Positions 5,281 through 53,824 of a stretch of 64,000 nt of DNA are shown here, in pieces. The notes beneath the pieces are model-generated. The model was not told the DNA's origin. It did not search any database and saw only the letters and a list, made by a program, of their open reading frames with translations. The DNA comes from Callorhinchus milii (Eukaryota): positions 33,792,001-33,856,000 of the forward strand of contig NW_024704742.1 of NCBI RefSeq assembly GCF_018977255.1, read 5' to 3'. Each line of letters starts with the position of its first letter. Within the stretch, counting starts at the first letter, position 1. The translations under genes were made by a program, and so were the position numbers.

Positions 5281-5827
5281 TTCACAGAAGTCAAAATGGA
5301 AGTAGCCAAGGGGAATATCAGAGCTTTGGCGGCAACACAGCCTGGATTTCTTAATTATAAATACTTTTTTGACTCCAGCAAATTAGATGTCGCTATCTTT
5401 CATACCCTAAATCAATTTCTTCTCTAAATGTATACAAGTGTTTGATTACCTGTTTGCTAGCAATCTTTGTACCAAAATACTTCTTTTAGGCTAGGGGTCT
5501 TGCCGTTTGCTGCAAGTGTGCTGAGAATATATGCGCAGGAGTAAACTCGTCTGTCACCCACACTCGCAACAATTATTCACCTCCTTGTGTTTATTGGAGC
5601 TTAAAATGAGAACTGACAGCAATTCACTGTAACAAAGTGTGTTTCCCCCCTACTCAAGGCCAAATCCTATTCATGTCCTGTAAATCCAGTTATTTCTCAA
5701 CCCTCGTCTGCCAAGACAAGAAAGATAGGGCAGGAGCAAGAGCGCGTGGTTGCCCGTGGATGGATCTAGCGCCCCCCGCTGGCATTAAATCGCGCCCCTT
5801 TGCTGCAAACTCCTTCGGAATTCTCAC

Positions 5828-5936
5828 CTTTGCAACGCTGGTACTCTGTCTTGTCCTCCTCTGACGGTTTCACTGGGGGTCCATCCAGGGCCCTCTTGCA
5901 CTCTTGTAGGAGCGCTTCCACCTCTTGGTTATTCAT
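5828..5936 (-). CDS. ALPK1: Alpha-protein kinase 1 (ADP-heptose sensor), first coding exon
   Basis: Reverse strand reads ATG AAT AAC CAA... = MNNQEVEALLQECKRALDGPPVKPSEEDKTEYQRCK plus 1 nt, then the donor g|gtgaga. This resembles the recalled human ALPK1 N-terminus MNNQKVVAVLLQECKQVLD...SEEDKSEDQRCR. The acceptor cttcccatag| puts the exon start at 5990, so it includes 5'UTR. Adjacency to TIFA supports the call. Confidence 0.92.
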
Positions 5937-6339
5937 GACCACTCGCTCGCCTATGAATTGAACGTCCCTGGGTGTTGGATGATCAATTACCTATGGGAAG
6001 ACACAAAAGCTAGATAAAGGATCCTTCAGGCGAACTACCTGGTGAACAAAAGGGAGAAATGATTAACTAAACCGTCATCAATTATCTGTAAGGCTCAAGC
6101 AGGGCGAGATAATGCTCACACTGCAGCAAAATACACAAGAGCCTCCTCCCTCTGTGGATGTCGCGTGTGAATTTCTGGCGGGGGTTGGTGCTGAGGCGTC
6201 GGCAGCTGGGACACTCTTCCCACATACAAATGCATACAGGCACTGTCTGCACCCCACTTTCCAGCACGGACACCACTGGTTTTAGTTTGTAAAATAACTG
6301 TACAGTCTGGCTTTGTTGTAACATATTGCAGCGTACAAC

Positions 6340-12794: not shown

Positions 12795-13690
12795 TTGGTA
12801 TTTGCCTCCAGTACCAACTCCAGCTTGTCTGGCAGACATCAAGGCCTGGATGAGTGTAAACTTCCTGCAGCTGAATGTGGACAAGACGGAAAGCCATACT
12901 TCTTGGCTCCCTTCAACGTTTTCACTCCTGCGGATTTAAACTCCTCAAACTCCCTGGGCTCTCCCTCGGACTCACCAAACCAGTGCGCATCCTAGGCGTC
13001 CCGTTCGACACCCAACTGTCCTTCCTCCCCCACATCTTTGGTCCCCGACTGCTTTCTTCCACCTCGGCCACATTGCCAGCCACCGTCCGTACCTTACCTC
13101 AAATGCAACCGAAACTCTCGTGTATGCGTTTGTCACCTCTCGCTTGGATTACTCCAATACACTCCTCACCGGTCTCCCCAGCTCCACCATTCACAAGATC
13201 CAGCTCATTCAAAACTCTGCCGCCCGCATACTGACCCAGACCAAACTCTGTACCCACATCTCACGAGTTCTGGCCAGGCTCCACTGGCTCCCCATCACTG
13301 AATAGGTCAACTTCAAGATCCTCACTCTCGTGTTCAAACCTATTCACTCCCTGGCACCTTCCTACCTCTCTGACCTCCTCACTCCCCAGTCCACCACCCG
13401 GCGCCTCCGCTCGACTGGCACCGGCCTCCTACTTATGCCTCGGACCTTCCGCCCCACCATCAGAGGTTGTGCTTTCAGCCACTACGCTCCAAAACTCTAG
13501 AACACTTTCCCTCAATCCCTCCGCCTTGCTCCCTCTCTCCCCTCTTTCATGTCTCGCCTGAAAACTTTCCTGTTCGACCGTACTTATGGTTACCTCCCCC
13601 CGGTTCGGAGTCAGGCTCCGCCACTGTTAAGCGTTCTGAGATGTTACCCTGCGTGGAGGGCGCTAAATAAGTGCAAGTTGTTATTGTTGT
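12795..13690 (+). mobile_element. L2 LINE 3' part
   Basis: AFVTSRLDYSNTLLTGLP...QLIQNSAARILT...LHWLP is the typical L2 ORF2 C-terminus; tail ends in (TTG)n. Confidence 0.92.
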
Positions 13691-16267
13691 ATTGGCAATT
13701 AAAATAGGATTTCTGAAATGGGTCACATTCATCTTTCCTTTTCTCTCCAACTCCCTCCCTTTCCCACCCCACCCCTGCTCTACTGAAGCCCTCACTTCAC
13801 CTGCTGAGCCATTGCCTGCCATCTTGGTATCTCAGTGATCATTCTGGCAAGTGTTGGCTATGAAACAAGTTACCATCTGGCACCGCCATGTGGGCAGCAA
13901 AGATACTGAGCTCAACTGTGCCTAAAACAAGCTGAGTCAGTGCAATAACAAGGAGACTTGTAAATGGAGCCATACCCCTCAGCTTGGTTTGAACAGTTTT
14001 CATGTGGATTCACATTTTTTTTCAAGTGACGCAAATAAATTGACATCCTTTCAAATCCTGCTGCTTTTTTAAAATTCATTGTGAGAGCGTTTCCAATGTA
14101 GCAACTGCAATCATGTCAGGGCATTGACACCCAGCACAAACTTTACCTTCAACACGTCAGTGACTGTGTGTCGAAAAATAAATCAGTCAAAAGATTATGC
14201 TGACCCATATAGTGGAAAAGGTTTGTTAGCACATGCGGAGATGGCAAAATCATAAGAGGTGTTTGGATAAAAAGGGAAGCCCATACGATCTCCTCCTATT
14301 AGAATTTCAATCCTATCTTCTACCCTCTACGGTAGCAATCTGGTTCAGTCCTAGCCTCAACCACTCATCCCTGCTAACAATTCCAGCTGTTGACCAGACA
14401 CAGTGTAAAATAAATTTCCTGTTGTCTGTCCTAAACTTACCTTCATAACCTTGATCTTGTGACCTCTCCTGCTGCCTGCCATAACTAAAAATATCAGAAA
14501 TAGAATCTGTTAATTTCCTTGGGCCAGTGTTATGTACCATGTGGGTTCGTTTGGATTCAGGAATACAGCAAAACTATGTTCTGTAATAAATTCAAAGTGA
14601 TAAACATCAGTTATTAAAAAATTGGCAAGTTTTCATTCATTCCTCAGAAGCGCTCTGAGACACTACCCTGTGTGGAGGGCACGATATAAGTGTAAATTGT
14701 TGAAATCCAAGACAATGGCTTAATCGCCAAACCAATTCTAACTATGTTGGGTCTTGCTTGGCTATTGCTAAACTAAGCTGCTTTAAGTCAGTAACCAGTG
14801 ACCTCGGCTGACACTCCAATACCCCCCATCACTTCTAAATTGATAAATTTGTGCAGATTCTGAGGTGGATAGAGTGTGCCCTCAAGTGGCAGAACGAAGA
14901 ATGGCAGAACGAAACCTAATCTCAATTTAAATTCCGTAAATTGCACTAATCTTATAACCAGTATACAACAATAATGATAGTCCTTGCCTTGATCAATTTT
15001 ATCATGGTTTGGGATTTTGATCAGGAGATCAGGAAAAGCTCCCTTCAAATAGTGCAATGAGGCATTTAACTTCCACCTGAACACACAGATAGGATCTTGT
15101 TTTTAGACCCCATCCGAAGGACACCACCATTGATAATGCAGCAGTCCCCCCCCCCCCCCACAGCACTACATTGGAGTGTCAGCCTAGGATGCGAGTTCAA
15201 AGTTTTGTGGGCGAAATACCCACAAAATAAACTGCAACATCGCACCCGATCTATGGGTTTGTGTTGTTAAGCATATCAGGACAACACTCTGATGTACGAT
15301 TTTAAGAATATTTTCTCTCCCTCTATGGGCACACAGAGTGTGCTGCCCGTTCAACCTCCATCAGTTCTGCTCCCTGTAGCAATATACTACAGAAAAGCAT
15401 TCTCCTAGTAACCAGACTGCTACCACTGAAGGTCACAAGAGGCCTAAATGGGCCCTGCAATCACGGCCTTGACAACAACTAAATTCAGTGACTTGTTACT
15501 CAATCAGACAAATCTGATTTGTGACAAATCTCTTGATTTTTATAACCTATAACCGTGATAAGTGTAATTTTTTTCCCCTCAAGTTATGTGATTTGGGGAT
15601 TTTCCCATAATAAGTGACTCCACTAAAGGCTCTGTAAGTTTACGATCAAGTGGAAAGTAACCCAGTTGGTTTTTCACTGTGAAGCGACTTGAATGGAGAA
15701 GACTTTCTGAGCTTCCGACTAAACAGCCTGTTCACACTGGCAGCCACAGCAATCTTCTTTTCTGGTCTACGTTCAATGTTTTACTTCAAATGATAGTTCA
15801 TGGTTCAAATACTGATCTTGCGGTGTCACGGGATCAGAAGAAATCACAAGGGACACAAGGAATAAAGAAGCCCAATGGACAAAGACCAGGAGCTCACTGG
15901 CCCAGATCTCAGTCCATGCGCTTTGGGACGTCCTCCCGACGTGAAAAGCGCTGTATCAAATGCAAGAATTATTATTATTATTATTAATATTAGTGGAGCG
16001 GCATTCAGACCATCGGGGACCAAACTTAACACTGTGACACAAAAAAAAACAACCCCCCACCACCGGGTAACAGCAGCACCGACACACCATCGGGGTCGCT
16101 CTCTCCGGTGTACACCTCCGTCGCAGCGCTCAATCTCTTTGCCCGTCTGAAACCCCGACACTGCAGTCAACGCGACCTCACCCCCCGCGCCCTCTGCGCA
16201 GTGCACAACGCACAGCGCTGCGACTTCTGAAGGAAATACGGTTTTCTTTCTCGCGACGATGCGTTAC

Positions 16268-16480
16268 CTTTTTTTTTCCTCCTCGGATTTTTTTATTTTA
16301 TTTATTTATTTATTTTTTCGCGGCCTCTTCCGGGTTAAAGGGATTCGGGAGCGGACACACACACACACACACAGTGAATTGCTCCGTAAGGTTCAGCTCT
16401 CAAAGTGACGCGCGGAAAAAGAAAAACAAAAAAAAAAAGGGCCTCTGAGAGATTGTCGGCAAAATGCAGCGGCGAAACCC
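16268..16480 (-). other. Candidate ALPK1 5' non-coding exon (start uncertain)
   Basis: Minus-strand donor AAG|gtaacg at 16268/16267, directly downstream of the kappaB/GC/CCAAT cluster. Confidence 0.4.
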
Positions 16481-16544
16481 GACCATTGGGGGGACTCCGC
16501 TCTCCGGGAAATTCCAGACCCCGCCCCAAGCGGGGAATTCCCGA

Positions 16545-16818
16545 CCCGTGTGACCTCATCGCCCCTCTGTGACCTCATCGCCCCTCTGTGACCTCACAGC
16601 TCCAGCCTCCTCGCCCCTCTGTGACCTCACAGCTCCAGAATTCCCGACCCTCTGTGACGTCACAGCTCCAGCCTCCCCGACCCTCTGTGACCTCCAGAAT
16701 TCCCGACCCTCTGTGACGTCACAGCTCCGGAATTCCCGACCCTCTGTGACGTCACAGCTCCGGAATTCCCGACCCTCTGTGACGTCACAGCTCCAGAATT
16801 CCCGGCCCTCAGTGACCT
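16545..16818. repeat. 33-bp minisatellite with palindromic CRE and kappaB-like motif
   Basis: Unit CTCTGTGACGTCACAGCTCC(G/A)GAATTCCCGACC. TGACGTCA occurs at 16655, 16714, 16747 and 16780, with shorter degenerate TGACCTCA units to the left. Confidence 0.95.
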
Positions 16819-16860
16819 GTCCCCAGCCCCGCGGGGCTCCCTCTGGACTTGTCTCCTCAA

Positions 16861-17420
16861 CCCCCCGCCCTACCCCCTCACCCCCTCACTCCCCCCTCAC
16901 CCCCCCCCTCAGCCCCACCCCCTCACTCCCCTCAGCCCCACCCCCCCCCACCCCCTCACCCCACCCCCTCACTCCCCCTCAGCCCCACCCCTCACCCCCC
17001 CCCTCAGCCCCACCCCTCACTCCCCTCAGCCCCCCCCCTCAGCCCCCCCCTCACCCCCCCACCCCCCCCTCACCCCACCCCCTCAGCCCCCCTCACCCCC
17101 CCCCTCACCCCCCTCACCCTCACCCCCCTCACCCCACCCCCTCACCCCCCTCACCCCCCTCAGCCCCACCCCTCAGCCCCCTCACCCCCCTCACCCTCAC
17201 CCCCCATCACCCCACCCCCCTCACCCCCCTCACCCCCTCAGCCCCACCACCTCAGCCCCCCCTCACCCCCCCTCACCTCACCCCCCCCCCACCCCCTCAC
17301 CCCCCTCAGCCCCACCCCCTCACCCCCACCCCCACCCTCACCCCCCTCAGCCCCCCTCAGCCCCACCCCCTCAGCCCCACCCCCTTCAGCCCCACCCCCT
17401 CACCCCGACCCCTCACCCCC
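16861..17420. repeat. C-rich low-complexity tract (CCCCTCA/CCCCTCAG-type units), G-quadruplex-prone on - strand
   Basis: About 560 bp made almost entirely of C runs separated by TCA, TCAG or A. Confidence 0.95.
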
Positions 17421-17598
17421 GGGGGCAACGATGACCAGACCACAGGAGAGCCGCGGAGGGCCTCCAGTTCCCAGGGCACAGGCGCCGCCCGGAGTGCGAT
17501 TGGTCGCTGGAGATGTCATTAACCGCAACAGCGTCGACACTAATATTTTGTTCACTCAGTGCATCTCCCAACAGCAAAGCTCTCAGTCAGTCACTCAC

Positions 17599-17720
17599 CA
17601 CCAGCGGCTCAATCCACTGCAGTGCCACAACGCCGAGGCTGAGAGCTGCAGCGCGTCTCTCAAGCAACGTTGGTACTCCCTCTCTCCCTCTCTCTCGTTA
17701 GCTCCAGTCGGAACAAGTTG
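17599..17720 (-). other. Candidate alternative ALPK1 5' non-coding exon
   Basis: Strong minus-strand donor TG|gtgagt at 17599/17598; TATA-like element about 25 nt upstream of the inferred start. Confidence 0.35.
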
Positions 17721-17774
17721 GAACAGAAGGTGTGTATATGGAGTATATATAACGGCTGCAGTTCGTCACAACCA

Positions 17775-17971
17775 TTTGTTTTAATCATCAGAAGTTAAAC
17801 GACTTAAGATTTATTCGTAAGGTATTAAGACTTAAGGTTTATTCATGTCCGGACTGATGCCCCGATAACGCCGTGAGACCGCTGCACTGTTGGAGCTGCT
17901 GTCCTTCAGTGTAAGGACATCACGGTGAGAGGTGTTGTACAAATCCAATGGCACCGTTTAGAAAAAAAGAA
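17775..17971 (+). other. Candidate TIFA 5' non-coding exon
   Basis: Plus-strand donors CG|gtgaga (17924) and AA|gtgagt (17971) downstream of the TATA-like element. The TIFA coding exon has an acceptor at 20775 that needs an upstream exon. Confidence 0.4.
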
Positions 17972-18024
17972 GTGAGTTCCGTTTTTGAATAGTGTGCCCC
18001 GGTCAACATACCCCCACATAGCAT

Positions 18025-18330
18025 CGCTTACAGCACTCGCTTTGCAAGAGGGAGACCTGAGTTCAATTCCAGGCAGAGGGCGAAACCTCGGGCAAGTTTC
18101 CTTACTCCACACTGAGCCTAATAATAATCCCTCCAAAACCCAAAACGATAATAAATTGGTCATTTTCAATCCACGACTGTTTGTGGGACATTGCTGTGCG
18201 CAATTGGCTGCCGCGTCGGCCCACAAATATACGGTCAATTCACTTTACAGTGTGTTCTGTGAAGCGCTTTGGGACGTCCTCCCGACGTGAAAAGCGCTAT
18301 ATCAAATGCAAGGATTATTATTATTATTGT
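18025..18330 (+). mobile_element. Young tRNA-derived SINE
   Basis: Same family; A-box region altered; (TTA)n tail. Confidence 0.9.
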
Positions 18331-19108
18331 TAAAGGGGGCAAGTGTGGACTGAGATTTACAACAACAACAAGATTCCATTTATAGAGCGCCTTTCACGTC
18401 GGGAGGACGTCCCAAGGCGCTACTCTACAATGACTCTACAGAAAGCAATGTTTCTATGCTTATTGACACTTGGGCAGATATTATCTGCAGAACCGTTTTC
18501 TTTTGGGCACCCGGGTATATATATATATATTTACCCGTATGCACGAATTCATCATCATGCTTTAGAGTATTCAAACCAATTCCACGCATCCCACCTACAC
18601 CTGGAAATTCCAGAGATATTTATTGGAATGCGCACTCTCTGCCTCCAGGGACTGGTGTCCTGCTGGAGCCAAACCAGCTAAACCACATAGTTTGCCATGC
18701 GGAGGATTTATTTAGATGTGAAGATTACTTGACATGTATTTTCGACCTGTTTTACTTTGGGGATCAGGGAGTATTGGTGAAGAACTTTTCTCGAAGATGG
18801 TGAGGTTGAATTCACAAATAGTTTTGGATTCAGGTAGGATGAGTGGCCTTTTCTTATCCTTTCTTTTTATTTCATTAATTTCATTTTCATTTTGCCCACA
18901 AATATACAATACTTCACACATATATAATATAAATATACAGTTAATTCACTTTACCATCGCTCAGATCTTCAGCTGTCTTTTAAAGGGACCATGAAAAGCC
19001 AAAAAAGAAGTTGCTCCTTTCCTCCTCAAAGTACAGAAACATTGCAGATTTCCTTCTCACTTTTAAAATGTAAAGAGAAGACGAGAACAGAATAAGATGA
19101 AGAGATGA

Positions 19109-20402: not shown

Positions 20403-20793
20403 AAGGATTATTATTAAGGTACTATATTAAATGCAAGGATTATTATTCTTAGTGTAGTATGTTAGTAATGTGCTGCTGATGATGGACATTGGTAAATAAT
20501 AGAGATTGTATTTTAGTCTGGGTCAGGATCTGAATAACTCTGTTTCTGTCGAGAGCGGGTAATATGCAATGGTACAATTTTGCATGGAACAAATAGCATC
20601 TGAATGACATTGAAACTATAATGGTTCTGATGGGTAGATTTTATGGTTCCCACCTGAAATTATTGCTGAGAAAGCACAAAATTGATTTGGTAAAACTCCA
20701 TGTCTTAATTGTTTTCATTCGTGGCGTACGCAGTGCAGTTATTGTGCTCATCACAAATACTTATTTGCTTTGCAGAAGAATAAACTTGACAGA

Positions 20794-21384
20794 ATGTCTT
20801 GTGACAGAACAGCCTTTGAAACTGCTGAGACGGAAGAGACCATAACTTGTCTGAACATCCATATCTACCATCCACAGCCGACCGTGTTTCAGTCTCTCAC
20901 TTTGGACAAGAAGTTGAAATTCCGAACTGATGAGGTGCTGAAGTTTGGACGTGACTCAAATATCTGTAATTTTCCGTTAATAGACAAACGGGCCTCACGA
21001 ATCCAGTTCAGCATTCAGGCTGTTAGATTCCTTGAAAGTACAGAACTTTGTTTTGAAATTAAAAATTTGAGCCTAAAGACTAAAATCTCTGTGGATTTTG
21101 CAATCTTGAATCACCTCAACAAGGTAGAGTTGTTAAGGAGGGGCCTGTTGCGGTTTGGTGAGTATCAGCTTTGCTTGGAAAAAGAAGATGGAGAATCCAG
21201 AGAACAGTTTGAAATCCTTTTCAAGTTGTCCCTCGTTCCACTGTATTCAGAGAGAGTGGTGGAGTCTCTAAACATTTCAGTTCCTGAATCTGGCATCTTG
21301 AACAATGGAGGGATTACATCTTCTCTCAGTTCTTTGGCGATTCCAGTGGAGATGGATGAAAATGACTTAAATAAACCAACTTAG
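20794..21384 (+). CDS. TIFA: TRAF-interacting protein with FHA domain (196 aa, single coding exon)
   Basis: ATG at 20794 follows the acceptor tttgctttgcag| (exon starts 20776). The protein has FETAETEET (T13 matches human pT9), FHA motifs FGRDSN, ASRIQ and EIKNLS, then RFGEYQ..EKEDGES and the C-terminal TRAF6 motif PVEMDE. Confidence 0.97.
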   Translation: MSCDRTAFETAETEETITCLNIHIYHPQPTVFQSLTLDKKLKFRTDEVLKFGRDSNICNFPLIDKRASRIQFSIQAVRFLESTELCFEIKNLSLKTKISVDFAILNHLNKVELLRRGLLRFGEYQLCLEKEDGESREQFEILFKLSLVPLYSERVVESLNISVPESGILNNGGITSSLSSLAIPVEMDENDLNKPT

Positions 21385-21689
21385 TCTCATAGCAACAGAC
21401 GACAAAATTTGCGATAAGCCTTGGTCTGTGCTGAGTAGGCTGACCTCGGCTGGAGATCAGTGTTCTAAATGACCTGAGTGGGGCCATCGTGTGCACAAAA
21501 TGGTGTACATTAAAGGGTGTATGTATAATGGCACATTGGAGAATCCCTGAGATTAACATGTAAACTGCTAGACATAACGTTATACAACAAAATCTAATAG
21601 TTGTCTATTTAGTCTCTTTTAGTATCCAATATAATTTAATTGGTATTTAATTGTAGTAATGAGTGATGATAATGAGAAAAATAATCGTT

Positions 21690-22103
21690 ACATTTGTTAT
21701 AGTGCCTTTCACGTATGGAGGATCTCTCGAAGCACTTCACAGGATATATTGTAAAATGGACTGACTATTTTGTCGGCGAAACATGGCAACCAATTGCACA
21801 CAGCAATATCCTCAAACCGCCATGGAGTGATTGACCAATTTTATTTGGAGGATTGTTGGCCAGGACACTCTGAGAAACCCCTTCTCTTTCTGAATAGGTC
21901 CATGGGATCTTTAACATCCAACTGTAAAGGCAGATGGGACCTCAGTTAAACATCTCATTTGACTGACGGCACCTCCAAGAATGCAACTCCAGCACTGCAT
22001 TGGAGTATTAGCTTAGACAATATGATTCCAAGTGCTGACGTGACATGAATGCATAACCTTCTGATTCAGAGGCAAGAATACTACCACTGAGCCAGGCTGA
22101 CAC
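21690..22103 (-). mobile_element. Old Deu-domain-like SINE downstream of TIFA
   Basis: Full reverse copy ending ccactgagccaggctgacac. Confidence 0.8.
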
Positions 22104-27631: not shown

Positions 27632-28675
27632 TAACATAACATGTAGGAGCAGGAGTAGGCCATTCGGCCCTTCGAGCCTGCCCCGCCATTCAATCATGGC
27701 TGATCTTCTAATCTAACTCCAGCTAATAACCTAACCCTGCCTTATCCCCATATTCCTTAATACCAATAAGAAATCTATCTATCTCAGTCTTGAATATGTT
27801 CAAGGACTGAGCGTCAACAGCCCTTTGGGGTAGTGAGTTCCATACATTCACCACCCTTTGAGTGAAGAAGTTCTTCCTCAACTCAGTGCGAAACGGCTGA
27901 CCTCTGATTTTAAGGTTGTGACCCCTGGCTTTAGTTTCTCCAACCAGGGAAACAATCTCCCACTATCTACCCTATCGTGCCCTTTGATGATCTTACAGGT
28001 TTCTATCAGCCTATCTTCGTAACTCATCCCTGGTACTAACCTAGTAAATCTACGCTGCACCCCCTCCAAGGCAAGTACATCCTTCCTTAAATAAGGAGAT
28101 CAAAACTGCACACAGTATTCCAGATGTGGTCTCACCAGGGCCGTGTACAGTTGCAGCAAGATGTCCCTACTCTTATACTCTAATCCTTTCATAATGAATG
28201 CTAACATACCGTTCGCCTTCCTAATTGCTGCTGCACCTGCAGACTAACTTTCTGTGATTGGTGTACAAGGACACCCGAGTCCCTCTGGACGCTAACACAT
28301 TCCAATCTCTCCCCTTCTAAAAAATAACCCGCTCTATTGTTTTTGCTACCTAGGTGGATGACTTTGCACTTCCCTACATTATACTTCATCTGCCACCTAC
28401 CTGCCCAATCACCTAACCTATCTATGTCTCGCTGCATTTTTTTAATGTCATCCTCTGTGTTGACACTTCCTCCTAGTTTTGTGTCATCCACGAATTTAGA
28501 TACGTTAACTTTGATGTCCACATCTAGATCGTTGATGTAGATAGTGAATAGCTGAGGCCCAACGACTGATCCTTGTGGCACTCCACTACTCACATCCCGC
28601 CAATCTGAAAAGGACCCGTTTATCCCTACACTTTGTTTCCTACCTGTTTAACCATTCCCCATTTCAGGTTAATAT
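27632..28675 (-). mobile_element. CR1 LINE 3' kb inserted into L2
   Basis: SGVPQGSVVGPQLFTIYINDLD...KFVDDTKLGG (RT motifs), EGVQRRFTRLVPG, CR1 3' UTR ggccattcggcccttcgagcc. Confidence 0.93.
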
Positions 28676-30755: not shown

Positions 30756-32879
30756 TAGATTAGTAACTAATTTACTGTTGCAATAAAAAAGGCCAGATTG
30801 TATGTAATTCCAACTCAGCCGGAGTAATGTAGAATGGGCGCTGTCGGGAGTTTAAAATAAGAATCAAGACATTCAGTTCTGGTAACTCAGGATGCAAATG
30901 ACCTTCTTGCAATGTGATGATATCTTGGCCAGTAACCACAGAGAAAGAGTAAAAAAACAAATTGAATTGCAGCATTTATGCCATGGTTGCTGCCAGATGT
31001 ATTTTAAAAATGCCACAGGAAGCAACTCTGCTTGAACAGTTTTGAAAAGTCAACCAAAGCGCACAAAGTATCTATCTATACTAATAAAATGACAATATCT
31101 GTCTGTCTGCATGCGCTTCAAGAAGGATCTCAATAACCGATTGATGTAGAGACATGATTTATACCTCATCGGAAAGGTCTTGCACCTGGGAATGACATGA
31201 ACATTTTGTTTTCAGGTATCGCATATCATTCATGAGTTATGACCTAAAATGTAACAGTGCACCAAAATGAGTTGCCCACTCAGAAAACAACATGGCCAAA
31301 ATGAGTCCTCCCACAGGAGTCCTCGCAGCTGAATATAAGTGTGTGTCTGTCTGTGTGCCGATCGACATTCCATATTGGAGCCTTTGGTTGCCATCAAAGC
31401 AGCAATGGGTACAGCTGGTTTTTAATAAGCAGAAAGAGGAACTGCAACTCGGACCAAACAAAGATGTTGATCCTTTCTCGGAAAAAAATATACTTCATTG
31501 GTTTTATTTCCTTCCACTCTTTTTGGAAATAACTGACTCAGCATGAGGTAGTTGGTTGACCTCTGGTAACTTATTCAAGTGGAATTCATGCAAGTTCAGA
31601 CAGGAGTATCAGGAGGCTTATGTGAACATGGAGTGGTGGGACAATCAAAGCCAATGCAATCCTATCCTCGCACAATACCCATATGTGCACTTCACAACAA
31701 CTGTCATAAGGCTGATTCCCCATCTGTCCTCATAGCCCAGGGGCTACGAAGGCCAATTTTGCACCACAACTGACGTCAGTTTAGTTCCACACTCATTTGA
31801 ATGTTATTAATTTTCTACAAGGAAACTGTTCGCTCCCAAATAGTCACTAAACTTTACAGTAAATTTTGCAAAGCACTTTGAGACATTCACAACGACATAG
31901 GGTGCTATATCAAGCGCAACGATTATTATTATAGTACAGTATAACTTGTAAAATGATGCATATATTATTCTACTAGCATTCTCAACTGGAATCATAGCCC
32001 CCAAAAGCCAGAAAAATACCATTTTATTTTTAAGGATAAACAAATCATTAATAAGCTTCAAAAAACATTGCTCTGCCAATCTGCAAGGATGCCAATCTGC
32101 AACATCCTTTGTAACTCAAGCTTTTCCCCTTTTTATATACTTTATCGTGTTCATTAGCCAACAGTGTGACAAGTGACCATCGTTTGCAACATTTAAAGGG
32201 CTTCCTTGATACCTTCCAGCGTTCATCATTCAACAACAACAACTTGCACTTATATAGTGGCCTCCACACAGGATAGCGTCTCAGAGCTCTTAACAGTGGC
32301 GAAGCCTGACATTCATCCCGTTAATGTTATCTGGCAAAGGATTCTCCTGCAGGGAGGCAGATGCAGTTGGGTTGTGTGTTCAAGCCCCACATTGGCACTT
32401 GAACTCACATAGTCTAAATTGACACTCCAATGCAGTGCTGGGAGGGTTTAACATTTTCAATCCCATTTAAATATTACACACCTCTATAAGGTCACTCTCT
32501 GATAAGTCTTTCAAGATGGTTTAACGTCTCATCCAAAGGAGGTGCTGTCCTTTGGATGAGACGATAAACCATCTTGAAAGGAGACATATGTAAATCCATA
32601 CTTTAGAATGAACAAATGCAGAATGAGAGAACATAGATATACAGTTACAAAAGGAAATCTCAGACCAGACACCAGGAAGTTTATTTTGCCGAGTGTAATT
32701 AACAGATTTCCAGGAAGGGTGGTTGAGCCTATGGTATGAGACTTACTTAAAAAACACACATCTTGATGTTATGATGGGAGCCAGTAAGGTGGGTATTATG
32801 TATGGATGAGATCAAATGGACCCCTCGCATAAAGGAACCTTCTTCATCCAAACTGATCTTGTTACCACTTCACCAATGA

Positions 32880-41086: not shown

Positions 41087-41700
41087 ATGAGTGCAAACTT
41101 CCTGCAGTTGAATGTGGAGCAGACGGACTTCTTGGCTCCCGTCAACGTCTTCACTCCTGCGGATCTGAACTCCTCAACCTCCCTGCTCTCTCTCCCTCAG
41201 ACTGACCAAACTAGCTCCACTATTCAAAAGAACAGAACTCTGCATCCGCGTACTGACCCGGACCAAACTCCGTACCCACATCTCACCAGTTCTGGCCAGG
41301 CTCCACTGGCTTCCCATCACTGAACAGATTGACTTCAAGATCCACATTCTCGTGTTAAAATCCATTCACTCCCTGGCACCTCCCTGCCTCTCTGACCTCC
41401 TCACTCCACCACCCGGCTCCTCTGCTCTACTGGCACCGGCCTCCTGCTCGTCCCTCGCACCCTCCGCCCCACCATCGGAGGTTGTGTTTTCAGTCACTGT
41501 GCCCCAAAACTCTGGAACACTCTCCCTCAATCCCTCCGCATTGCCCCCTCTCTCCCCTTTTTTGTCTTGCCTGAAAACCTTCTGGTTCGACCGTGCTTAT
41601 GGCCAGCCCCCCACTGGCTCGGAGTCGGGCTCTGCCACAGTTAGGTGCTCTGAGATGTTAACATGCATGGATGGCTCTATATAAGTGCAAGTTGTTGTTG
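41087..41700 (+). mobile_element. L2 LINE 3' part (internally deleted)
   Basis: Closely parallels 12850-13690; (TTG)n tail. Confidence 0.9.
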
Positions 41701-52759: not shown

Positions 52760-53250
52760 TATAGAATCACAGAATATTGCAGGACATAAGGAGGCCATTC
52801 GGCCATTGTGCCTGTTGGTTCTTTGGAGGACAATCAGTCCCACTTCCCGCTCTTTTCCCATATCCGTGCAAATTTTTCCTTTTCAAGTACCTATCTAATT
52901 CTCTTTTGAAAGCTGTTATTGAATCTGTTTCCACAGCCCTTTCAGGCAGTGCATTCAGGACCGTAACAACTCTCTGTGTAAAGAAAATTCTCCTTATCTC
53001 CCCTCTGGTTCTTTTGCCGATTATCTTGAATCTACGTGCCCTGGTTACTGACCCACTGGCAAGTGGAAACAGTTTCTCCCCAACTACTCTATCAAAGCTC
53101 CTCATAATTTTGAACACCTCTATTAAATCTCTCCTTAACCATCTCTGCTCCAAGGAGAACAATCTCAGCTTCTCTAGTCTCTCCACATAACTAAAGTCCC
53201 TCATCCCTGGTAGTATTCTGGTAAATCTCCTCTGCACCCTCTCCAAGTAT
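52760..53250 (-). mobile_element. CR1 LINE 3' end
   Basis: 159-aa ORF ERVQRRFTRILPGMRDFSYVERLEKLRLFSLEQR...FFTQRVV. Confidence 0.93.
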
Positions 53251-53824
53251 CCAGAAAATTTACCAATTAGCAGGTTTAAAAAGCTACACTAAATGTATCA
53301 GCAGCCTGCATTAATAAGCTCAAGATGCAGTTAAAGCTCCATTTGAAGACATTTAATGACCTTGTATTAAGCTCTAATTATTGGTTCTAAATGTCATTTC
53401 TGATGTTAGATATTATAATCGGACAGCTGAAGGCAGCGTTAAGTTGTTCATCTGCATTCTGCACCAGACAAGTGGCACTGCGGGGTTCAGGAAAATATTA
53501 ATTCTAAGTTTCTTCAAAGGCTTTGGCATTAAACACTAAGGTGGCTCAGCCAGCACTGCATTGGAGTGTCAGCCGAGACTATGAGCTCAAAGTTCCGACT
53601 TAGGGCTTGAACTCACAACTCCCCTCCACCAACCCCCATACCCACCCCACCGCCCCGATGTCCGAATACTACCAGTTGAGCCAGGCTGACTCATTAATGC
53701 CTATTCACCTCGACTTGAAGGTTAAACAAACATGGCAGAATGATAATTTTGTGCAATGGTTTAAATGAGAGTCAAATTCCACTCCGAATACATGTCTAAT
53801 TCTAACAATTTTGTAGCTCCTTAC

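Follow-up and report, generated by a model that had tools for sequence, protein, structure and literature searches.

Does a tandem array of transcription factor motifs that lies between two genes of one NF-kB-activating pathway act on their expression, or did it merely arise there as a product of repeat expansion? The question is raised by a 64,000-nucleotide stretch of Callorhinchus milii DNA (assembly GCF_018977255.1, contig NW_024704742.1, positions 33,792,001 to 33,856,000), here called the window, in which a minisatellite joining cyclic AMP response elements (CREs) to kappaB-like motifs is found between the divergent genes ALPK1 and TIFA. We find that the array is a genuine, locus-specific minisatellite in the CpG island upstream of TIFA, facing ALPK1. 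The duplicated segment, with its kappaB site and CRE, can be read as a putative platform multiplying ATF/CREB and Rel sites upstream of TIFA, and we give this preferred reading a rough probability of 0.45. An initial annotation of the same DNA had gone further and proposed a copy-number-variable element in a promoter shared by both genes.

Architecture of the array

The minisatellite follows directly on a compact module of kappaB sites, and the two are laid out as follows (window coordinates).

16485..16489, minus strand: inverted CCAAT box, missed by the initial annotation
16489..16542, plus strand: kappaB module, with GGGGGACTCC at 16489, GGGAAATTCC at 16506, a GC box at 16519-16527 and GGGGAATTCCC at 16532
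16545..16582, plus strand: short 19-bp units u0 and u1
16583..16818, plus strand: 33-bp minisatellite, units u2-u9

The module had been described as two consensus kappaB sites flanking a GC box, and the motif scan bears out both positions, with GGGAAATTCC at 16506-16515, GGGGAATTCCC at 16532-16542 and the GC box CCCCGCCCC between them. A third match to GGRRNNYYCC, GGGGGACTCC at 16489-16498, had escaped notice, and the kappaB consensus GGGRNNYYCC is found at 16489, 16506 and 16532/16533. The 10-mer GGGAAATTCC is the same as that of positive regulatory domain II (PRDII) of IFN-beta. Over the whole window GGRRNNYYCC is not enriched (9 found, 11.7 expected, at least 9 in 81 of 100 shuffles); four of these nine matches, representing three separate kappaB sites, lie within 54 bp. 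When the local sequence was simulated with first-order Markov models, three or more kappaB sites within 60 bp arose in none of 5000 sequences trained on 15901-16545, in 5 of 5000 trained on 16401-16900 and in 2 of 5000 trained on 15901-18400. With at most 5 of 5000 local simulations reproducing it, the clustering of the kappaB triplet is non-random. A search of 15900-17760 for interferon motifs returned no gamma-activated site and one GAAANNGAAA, within an A-rich run at 16415.

Cut at its TGTGAC anchors, the minisatellite consists of ten units spanning 16545-16818.

u0, start 16545, 19 bp: TGACCTCA, short form without kappaB-like motif
u1, start 16564, 19 bp: TGACCTCA, short form without kappaB-like motif
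u2, start 16583, 33 bp: TGACCTCACAG and CCAGCCTCC
u3, start 16616, 33 bp: TGACCTCACAG and AGAATTCCC
u4, start 16649, 33 bp: perfect CTGTGACGTCACAG and CCAGCCTCC, CCTCC replacing AATTCC
u5, start 16682, 26 bp: deleted (truncated) core and AGAATTCCC
u6, start 16708, 33 bp: perfect palindrome and GGAATTCCC
u7, start 16741, 33 bp: same sequence as u6
u8, start 16774, 33 bp: perfect palindrome and AGAATTCCC, two changes from u7
u9, start 16807: degenerate

These head-to-tail units are of the size, about 10-100 bp, by which minisatellites are defined. Tandem Repeats Finder reports a period of 33 bp for 16582-16818 (7.4 copies, 85% matches, score 292), a second period of 66 bp for the array (3.7 copies, score 327), which arises because CCTCC and AATTCC forms take turns in u2-u5, and, at 16549-16596, a repeat of 19 bp (2.5 copies, 100% matches). 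The copies of the full CRE TGACGTCA previously placed at 16655, 16714, 16747 and 16780 were all recovered; the 14-bp palindrome CTGTGACGTCACAG itself begins three bases before each of them, at 16652, 16711, 16744 and 16777. These four are palindromic CREs with an intact central CpG, and four more units carry TGACCTCA. With five copies of TGACGTCA the window exceeds the 0.33 expected, a count that none of 100 shuffles reached. The only other full CRE in the window is a single copy at 31771-31778.

The kappaB-like motif (A/G)GAATTCCC occurs five times in the array, at 16637, 16696, 16729, 16762 and 16795. Two of the five are GGAATTCCC, which fits HGGARNYYCC when read as CGGAATTCCC, while the rest are off by one or two bases. 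Within a unit the centres of the CRE and the kappaB-like motif are about 15 bp apart, and about 18 bp then separate the latter from the next CRE. The 33-bp period amounts to 3.14 helical turns at 10.5 bp per turn, so the proposal that it keeps the sites in phase holds only roughly: from one unit to the next the phase shifts by about 50 degrees, and these shifts add up. No Rfam match was obtained for 15000-19000 at E values up to 1. We also rejected the array or the adjoining C-rich tract as coding sequence, the long open reading frames (ORFs) across 16554-17784 being translations of this low-complexity tract.

Two identical 33-bp units with near-identical neighbours are hard to assemble, and contigs built from short words break nearby, at 16285-16443 and three other places, so repeat collapse or expansion could have left the number or order of units wrong. 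We consider such an assembly artefact very unlikely. The differences between the units are ordered and interpretable, and the bin 16340-17006 has a depth of 12.6 in run X1, like nearby unique sequence (8.3-14.8), X1 being possibly the assembled sample and not an independent one.

Genomic background of the unit

The 27-base composite GCTCCRGAATTCCCGACCCTCTGTGAC has five genome matches at up to two mismatches, and all five lie in the array, with none elsewhere in 991.5 Mb. The 17-base core CCCTCTGTGACGTCACA is present in 24 copies in the same sequence, four of them in the array, 17 in a single array on C4 and three as singletons; we estimate that chance would yield about 0.1 copies in 1 Gb. The C4 array (C4:19305993-19306613, L002 about 1470-2100) has a 34-bp unit in 18.8 copies, which shares CCCTCTGTGACGTCACA and is unrelated in its other half, and it is followed by a long CA-rich microsatellite. 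The three singletons (L011, L012 and L030, position 1501) stand in unrelated promoter-like contexts with GC boxes, CCAAT boxes, ETS cores and an E-box, and in L030 the singleton is directly followed by another minisatellite, with GGGCAATGGGGTCAATGGGCATTGG-type units.

Could the array then belong to a dispersed family of transposable elements or satellites? Fragments of short and long interspersed elements (SINEs and LINEs) abound in the window, and the C4 array shares the 17-base core, both of which would fit such an origin. The composite unit is confined to the array, however, and the three singletons of the core have unrelated flanks; many copies with common flanks, as a dispersed repeat would have, were not found, and we rejected this origin as hardly credible. 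What is specific to the locus is the kappaB-like half, together with the three consensus kappaB sites that it adjoins.

The CRE half tells a different story. Pairs and triplets of CREs and of control palindromes, counted genome-wide at 15-45 bp spacing, were distributed as follows.

TGACGTCA (CRE): 12037 sites, 795 pairs, 336 triplets, 2.8% triplets per site
ACTGCAGT (reversed palindrome): 31856 sites, 117 pairs, 34 triplets, 0.11%
TCACGTGA (CpG-containing E-box palindrome): 9251 sites, 18 triplets, 0.19%
AGTCGACT: 0 triplets

Per site, triplets of the CRE are 26 times commoner than those of ACTGCAGT and 14 times commoner than those of TCACGTGA. Palindromy alone is thus weakened as a cause of CRE arrays, since ACTGCAGT, TCACGTGA and AGTCGACT form far fewer of them, and the excess shows that neither palindromy nor location in a CpG island is sufficient by itself.

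Among the CRE-array matches listed, 50 are distinct and fall at 21 places on 14 contigs. We examined 20 arrays, a set that is not random but takes the first places per contig: the TIFA array, the C4 array and 18 of the 19 other listed places, the omitted one being a near neighbour of two that were included. Tandem Repeats Finder reported an array in 19 of the 20, with a base period between 18 and 52 bp or a higher-order multiple of it, and the 600-bp flanks had a CpG observed-to-expected ratio (o/e) of at least 0.6 in 16 of the 20. Units of the CRE minisatellites in this genome (instances are found at C2:81355812, C5:26257930, C9:21498217, C10:7410102 and C96:104065) are mutually unrelated; in some of them the CRE is accompanied by GC boxes, an ETS site or a TATA box. 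The TIFA array resembles the other minisatellites of this class, whose periods range from 18 to 52 bp and copy numbers from 2 to 19, which have one full CRE in each unit, and most of which are flanked by CpG-rich DNA. It differs in its non-CRE half, which is unrelated to theirs, and among the arrays examined it alone has a kappaB-like motif and adjoining consensus kappaB sites.

Judged by these counts, the CRE half of the array is one instance of a phenomenon that recurs in the genome and is not bespoke to the locus, which weakens the idea of the CRE array as a pathway-specific design. The excess of CRE arrays, mostly in CpG-rich DNA, points either to selection that favours multiple CREs or to a mutational process linked to the CRE, and this result on the class may matter more than the single locus.

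The same numbers bear on the principal alternative to a docking platform. In this explanation the array is a neutral by-product: slippage or unequal exchange expanded a GC-rich promoter segment, palindromes helped, and the motifs are passengers with no selected effect on TIFA or ALPK1. It gains from the many CRE minisatellites with unrelated units in the genome, and it loses from the 14- to 26-fold excess of CRE arrays over control palindromes, among them a CpG-containing one of promoter type.

Birth and expansion of the array

We propose that the array would have started when a promoter segment in which the kappaB site GGGGAATTCCC was already followed by the CRE-like TGACCTCA was duplicated in tandem. 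Outgrowth from the kappaB site at 16532 had been suggested before, and it is supported by the shared junction GAATTCCCGACCC(G/TC)TGTGAC, which reads GAATTCCCGACCC-G-TGTGAC at 16536 in the unique site and GAATTCCCGACCC-TC-TGTGAC in the units. The early units appear to alternate between a CCTCC form without the kappaB-like motif and an AATTCC form with it. A later C-to-G change would have created the perfect TGACGTCA within the 14-bp palindrome. The newest expansion is probably that at the 3' end, which consists of palindrome-bearing units, u6 being identical to u7 and u8 two changes away.

The top strand of 16640-16810, folded as single-stranded DNA, reaches -34.9 kcal/mol against -15.0 ± 2.9 for shuffles (z = -6.95), and none of 200 shuffles folded as well. 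The fold rests on 14-bp stems that pair palindromes of different units, so slipped-strand mispairing would be favoured and is a plausible driver of the expansion. The CRE variants of the older units are TGACCTCA, not the deamination products TGATGTCA or TGACATCA, and the CpGs of the units are kept. In PMC1796609, TGATGTCA is given as the deamination product of the CRE. The TGACCTCA variants and the retained CpGs would fit an unmethylated island or a young array.

The mode of birth is generic, in that many CpG islands of this genome have gained or retained minisatellites with CREs. Strong pairing between the palindromes of different units and the heterogeneity of the units, deleted and degenerate forms included, are what a neutral by-product would lead one to expect. 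That the array abuts a non-random kappaB triplet and that its CpGs have been retained are less readily explained in this way. On balance the neutral explanation is a serious possibility, almost as likely as the docking platform.

Position between TIFA and ALPK1

The setting of the array is given by the following features.

15900..18400, no strand assigned: CpG island, interrupted by a CpG-free C-rich tract
16868..17420, plus strand: C-rich (CCCTCACC)n tract, 553 bp, 75% C, without CpG, with 44 CACCC boxes and 17 minus-strand G-quadruplex motifs
17499..17503, minus strand: inverted CCAAT box just upstream of the mapped TIFA 5' exon
17523..17729, plus strand: TIFA non-coding 5' exon from RNA contigs, 5' limit a minimum, donor AAG/GTGTGT after 17729
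20776..21759, plus strand: TIFA exon 2, coding sequence 20794-21384, 196 amino acids, 3' limit a minimum
5828..5990, minus strand: ALPK1 first coding exon, ATG at 5936-5934, AG acceptor at 5992-5991, donor AAG/GTGAGA after 5828

Against a window mean of 0.42, CpG o/e is 1.1-1.41 at 15.9-16.5 kb and 0.66-0.78 in the 300-bp windows over the array (0.70 for the array itself), then drops to zero across the C-rich tract and recovers to 0.76-1.0 at 17.4-18.4 kb. The 300-bp windows of 15901-16900 have a GC content of 0.51-0.65 and an o/e of 0.66-1.38, values that define a CpG island (GC at least 0.5 and o/e at least 0.6 over more than 200 bp). The peak of 1.38-1.41 and the minus-strand CCAAT box at 16485 lie directly on the ALPK1 side of the kappaB triplet, and the C-rich tract fills the space between the array and the TIFA 5' exon. 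The only other CpG-rich stretches are the ALPK1 coding exon and a dispersed element at 12.8-13.8 kb; as the latter is high-copy in the sequencing runs, the array sits in the single unique, non-repeat CpG island between the genes.

The gene identities and the divergent orientation given by the initial annotation were confirmed. A PDB search matched the plus-strand ORF 20794-21384 to solved TIFA structures over nearly its full length (E=3.8e-43), while a Pfam search of the same ORF returned no family despite this strong match. On the minus strand, the ORF 5990-5769 contains MNNQEVEALLQECK and matches ALPK1 alone in the PDB (5z2c, 8zd3), at residues 1-41 of the human protein (E=0.0022). The predicted divergent arrangement of ALPK1 and TIFA is real.

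The 5' exon of TIFA was mapped with runs X5-X7, which were taken as RNA by guess. In run X7 a contig of 1064 letters connects 17655-17727 with 20774-21759 across a canonical junction (AAG/GT at 17729/17730, AG/ at 20775/20776), ahead of the ATG at 20794. A second X7 contig, spanning 17523-17684, is the most 5' RNA contig, and together the two place a transcription start within the island. Because these runs are available as contigs, true 5' ends cannot be read from them, and TIFA may start within the C-rich tract or upstream of it. Run X5 contributes a contig of the same depth class that continues for another 153 letters past the coding exon and carries an 8-bp CTCTCCCT insertion at 17679. The TIFA 5' exon contains a (CTCCCTCT)n micro-repeat at 17676-17694, and the extra CTCTCCCT in X5 indicates that its length differs between samples.

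For ALPK1 the first coding exon is preceded by a pyrimidine tract and an AG acceptor, which means that at least one non-coding exon probably lies at higher coordinates. The bin holding this coding exon (5668-6334) has a depth of 0 in X5 and X7 and of 1.17 in X6. The CpG peak at 16.0-16.5 kb, which adjoins the kappaB sites, is a plausible place for the first exon of ALPK1. Alternatively, ALPK1 could start just upstream of 5990, and the two promoters would then be about 10-11 kb apart.

A putative docking platform upstream of TIFA

We hypothesize that the array and the three kappaB sites could bind basic leucine zipper (bZIP) proteins, CREB/ATF1 or ATF2/c-Jun, together with Rel dimers. Such a docking platform would raise the transcription of TIFA or make it inducible, and ALPK1 would be likewise affected if its first exon lies in the adjacent CpG peak. 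NF-kB and AP-1 are driven by ALPK1-TIFA signalling, according to PMC12457700. As signalling through ALPK1, TIFA and TRAF6 activates both factors, a module of this kind would give positive feedback. Promoter minisatellites can hold NF-kB sites, and their copy number then affects binding, as stated in PMC8096271. Our literature search (supplements excluded) turned up no work on kappaB or CRE sites in the promoters of TIFA or ALPK1; the one paper that it gave on the TIFA promoter concerns methylation.

Several observations weigh against the docking platform. The initial annotation had described the full unit as a palindrome joined to a kappaB-like motif, and this is true of u6, u7 and u8, not of the other seven of the ten units; moreover, of the array's five kappaB-like motifs three have the weaker form AGAATTCCC. 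The four copies of TGACGTCA represent one event amplified by duplication and do not count as independent evidence. At least 705 bp separate the end of the array at 16818 from the mapped TIFA 5' end downstream of it, at 17523, a distance that also speaks for the neutral explanation. The CREs of the array are 736-868 bp from this 5' end, outside the 1-150 bp upstream of start sites in which mammalian CREs concentrate (PMC1796609). CRE minisatellites with unrelated units are common in the genome, at no fewer than 20 other places, so the array could be the by-product of a general process. Finally, neither the RNA contigs nor a donor scan of 15000-16500 revealed a 5' exon or start site of ALPK1; the scan, a crude one, gave weak candidates at 16182, 16268 and 16088 with scores of 7.3-7.9, compared with 9.4 and 10.6 for the two verified donors.

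The proposal of the initial annotation was a copy-number-variable CRE and kappaB element in a shared bidirectional promoter, which would feed back onto both ALPK1 and TIFA and act as a rheostat at the population level. Its premise of a shared divergent promoter, understood as two start sites on opposite strands less than about 1 kb apart, stands in part: the genes are divergent and the array lies in the intergenic CpG island, but the array is not at the mapped TIFA start and, because the start site of ALPK1 was not located, the sharing itself is only partly supported. The confirmed gene order with its intervening island, the identity of u6 and u7, which shows a recent duplication and makes length change plausible, and the activation of NF-kB and AP-1 by the pathway (PMC12457700) are all in keeping with a rheostat. 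Against it, no length variant within 16485-16818 appeared among the matches listed from four runs, a result of limited reach since contigs built from 31-letter words cannot span identical units. The ALPK1 start may also be some 10 kb away, and a description of human monocytes gives ALPK1 and TIFA promoters of their own, to both of which STAT1 binds after IFN-gamma (PMC11758396). We therefore regard the rheostat as quite unlikely.

The docking platform itself can be extended into a bolder claim, by which the locus would, in this lineage, have acquired an enhancer of variable unit number for bZIP (ATF/CREB/c-Jun) and Rel factors, with positive feedback of the TRAF6-TAK1 output (NF-kB and AP-1) onto the adaptor and possibly the sensor, and CRE minisatellites in CpG islands throughout this genome would constitute a class of promoters that copy number can tune. 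This extension is, in our estimate, unlikely. At present the locus is a well-placed array of predicted motifs, and a promoter-region minisatellite that multiplies factor motifs is a known kind. If the factors do bind, the locus would offer a natural case of a cellular enhancer that tandem duplication has built, comparable to the cytomegalovirus (CMV) enhancer, and an adaptor gene of the ADP-heptose pathway would amplify itself with a strength that shifts as units are gained or lost.

Comparison with known systems

Composite enhancers that combine ATF-2/c-Jun with NF-kB are found in the IFN-beta enhanceosome and the E-selectin promoter, where a CRE-type bZIP site beside a kappaB site integrates the outputs of JNK/p38 and IKK. 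These elements are single-copy, precisely spaced and highly conserved. The TIFA array differs from them in that its units are repeated, with centre spacings between CRE and kappaB-like motif of about 15 and 18 bp in turn.

By analogy of form, a promoter minisatellite with factor sites is the closest kind, the HRAS1 minisatellite being an example. This repeat is bound by rel/NF-kB proteins and is cited, together with the variable number tandem repeat (VNTR) of INS and the Sp1 VNTR of XRCC5, in PMC8096271. Like these VNTRs, the TIFA array has units of tens of bases near a gene 5' end with factor motifs in each, and unit number could set the number of sites. Length polymorphism, binding and an effect on expression are documented for the three VNTRs and are conjectural for the TIFA array. 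In its unit, unlike theirs, motifs of two types are joined, and three consensus kappaB sites that are not themselves repeated lie beside it.

The best functional analogy is a signal-responsive enhancer, the major immediate-early enhancer of human cytomegalovirus (HCMV), for which PMC6116278 lists 18-bp NF-kB/rel, 19-bp CREB/ATF and 21-bp Sp1 repeats. In both cases repeated CRE and kappaB elements are interleaved, accompanied by GC boxes, and lie upstream of a core promoter. The HCMV enhancer is viral, has dispersed repeats and has been tested experimentally, whereas the TIFA array is a cellular, head-to-tail repeat whose kappaB-like half is mostly imperfect. With the canonical vertebrate CREs, as they are described in PMC1796609, the array shares the full palindromic TGACGTCA, the intact central CpG and the location inside a CpG island.

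Neighbouring repeats

A SINE-like element ending in (ATT)n at 15650-15995 adjoins the left edge of the island, and its bin is very deep in all runs. Low-depth contigs covering 15318-15938 are co-linear with the genome, overlap a SINE and are uninformative. The dispersed CpG-rich element that occupies 12800-13800 recurs at 41169-41684 and on another contig (L031, 1595-1921); it contains an ORF with ...LARLHWLPI...DFKI... and mimics a CpG island. Two further stretches on the minus strand, 28201-28647 and 52767-53288, contain ORFs that, judged by eye, resemble fragments of LINE reverse transcriptase.

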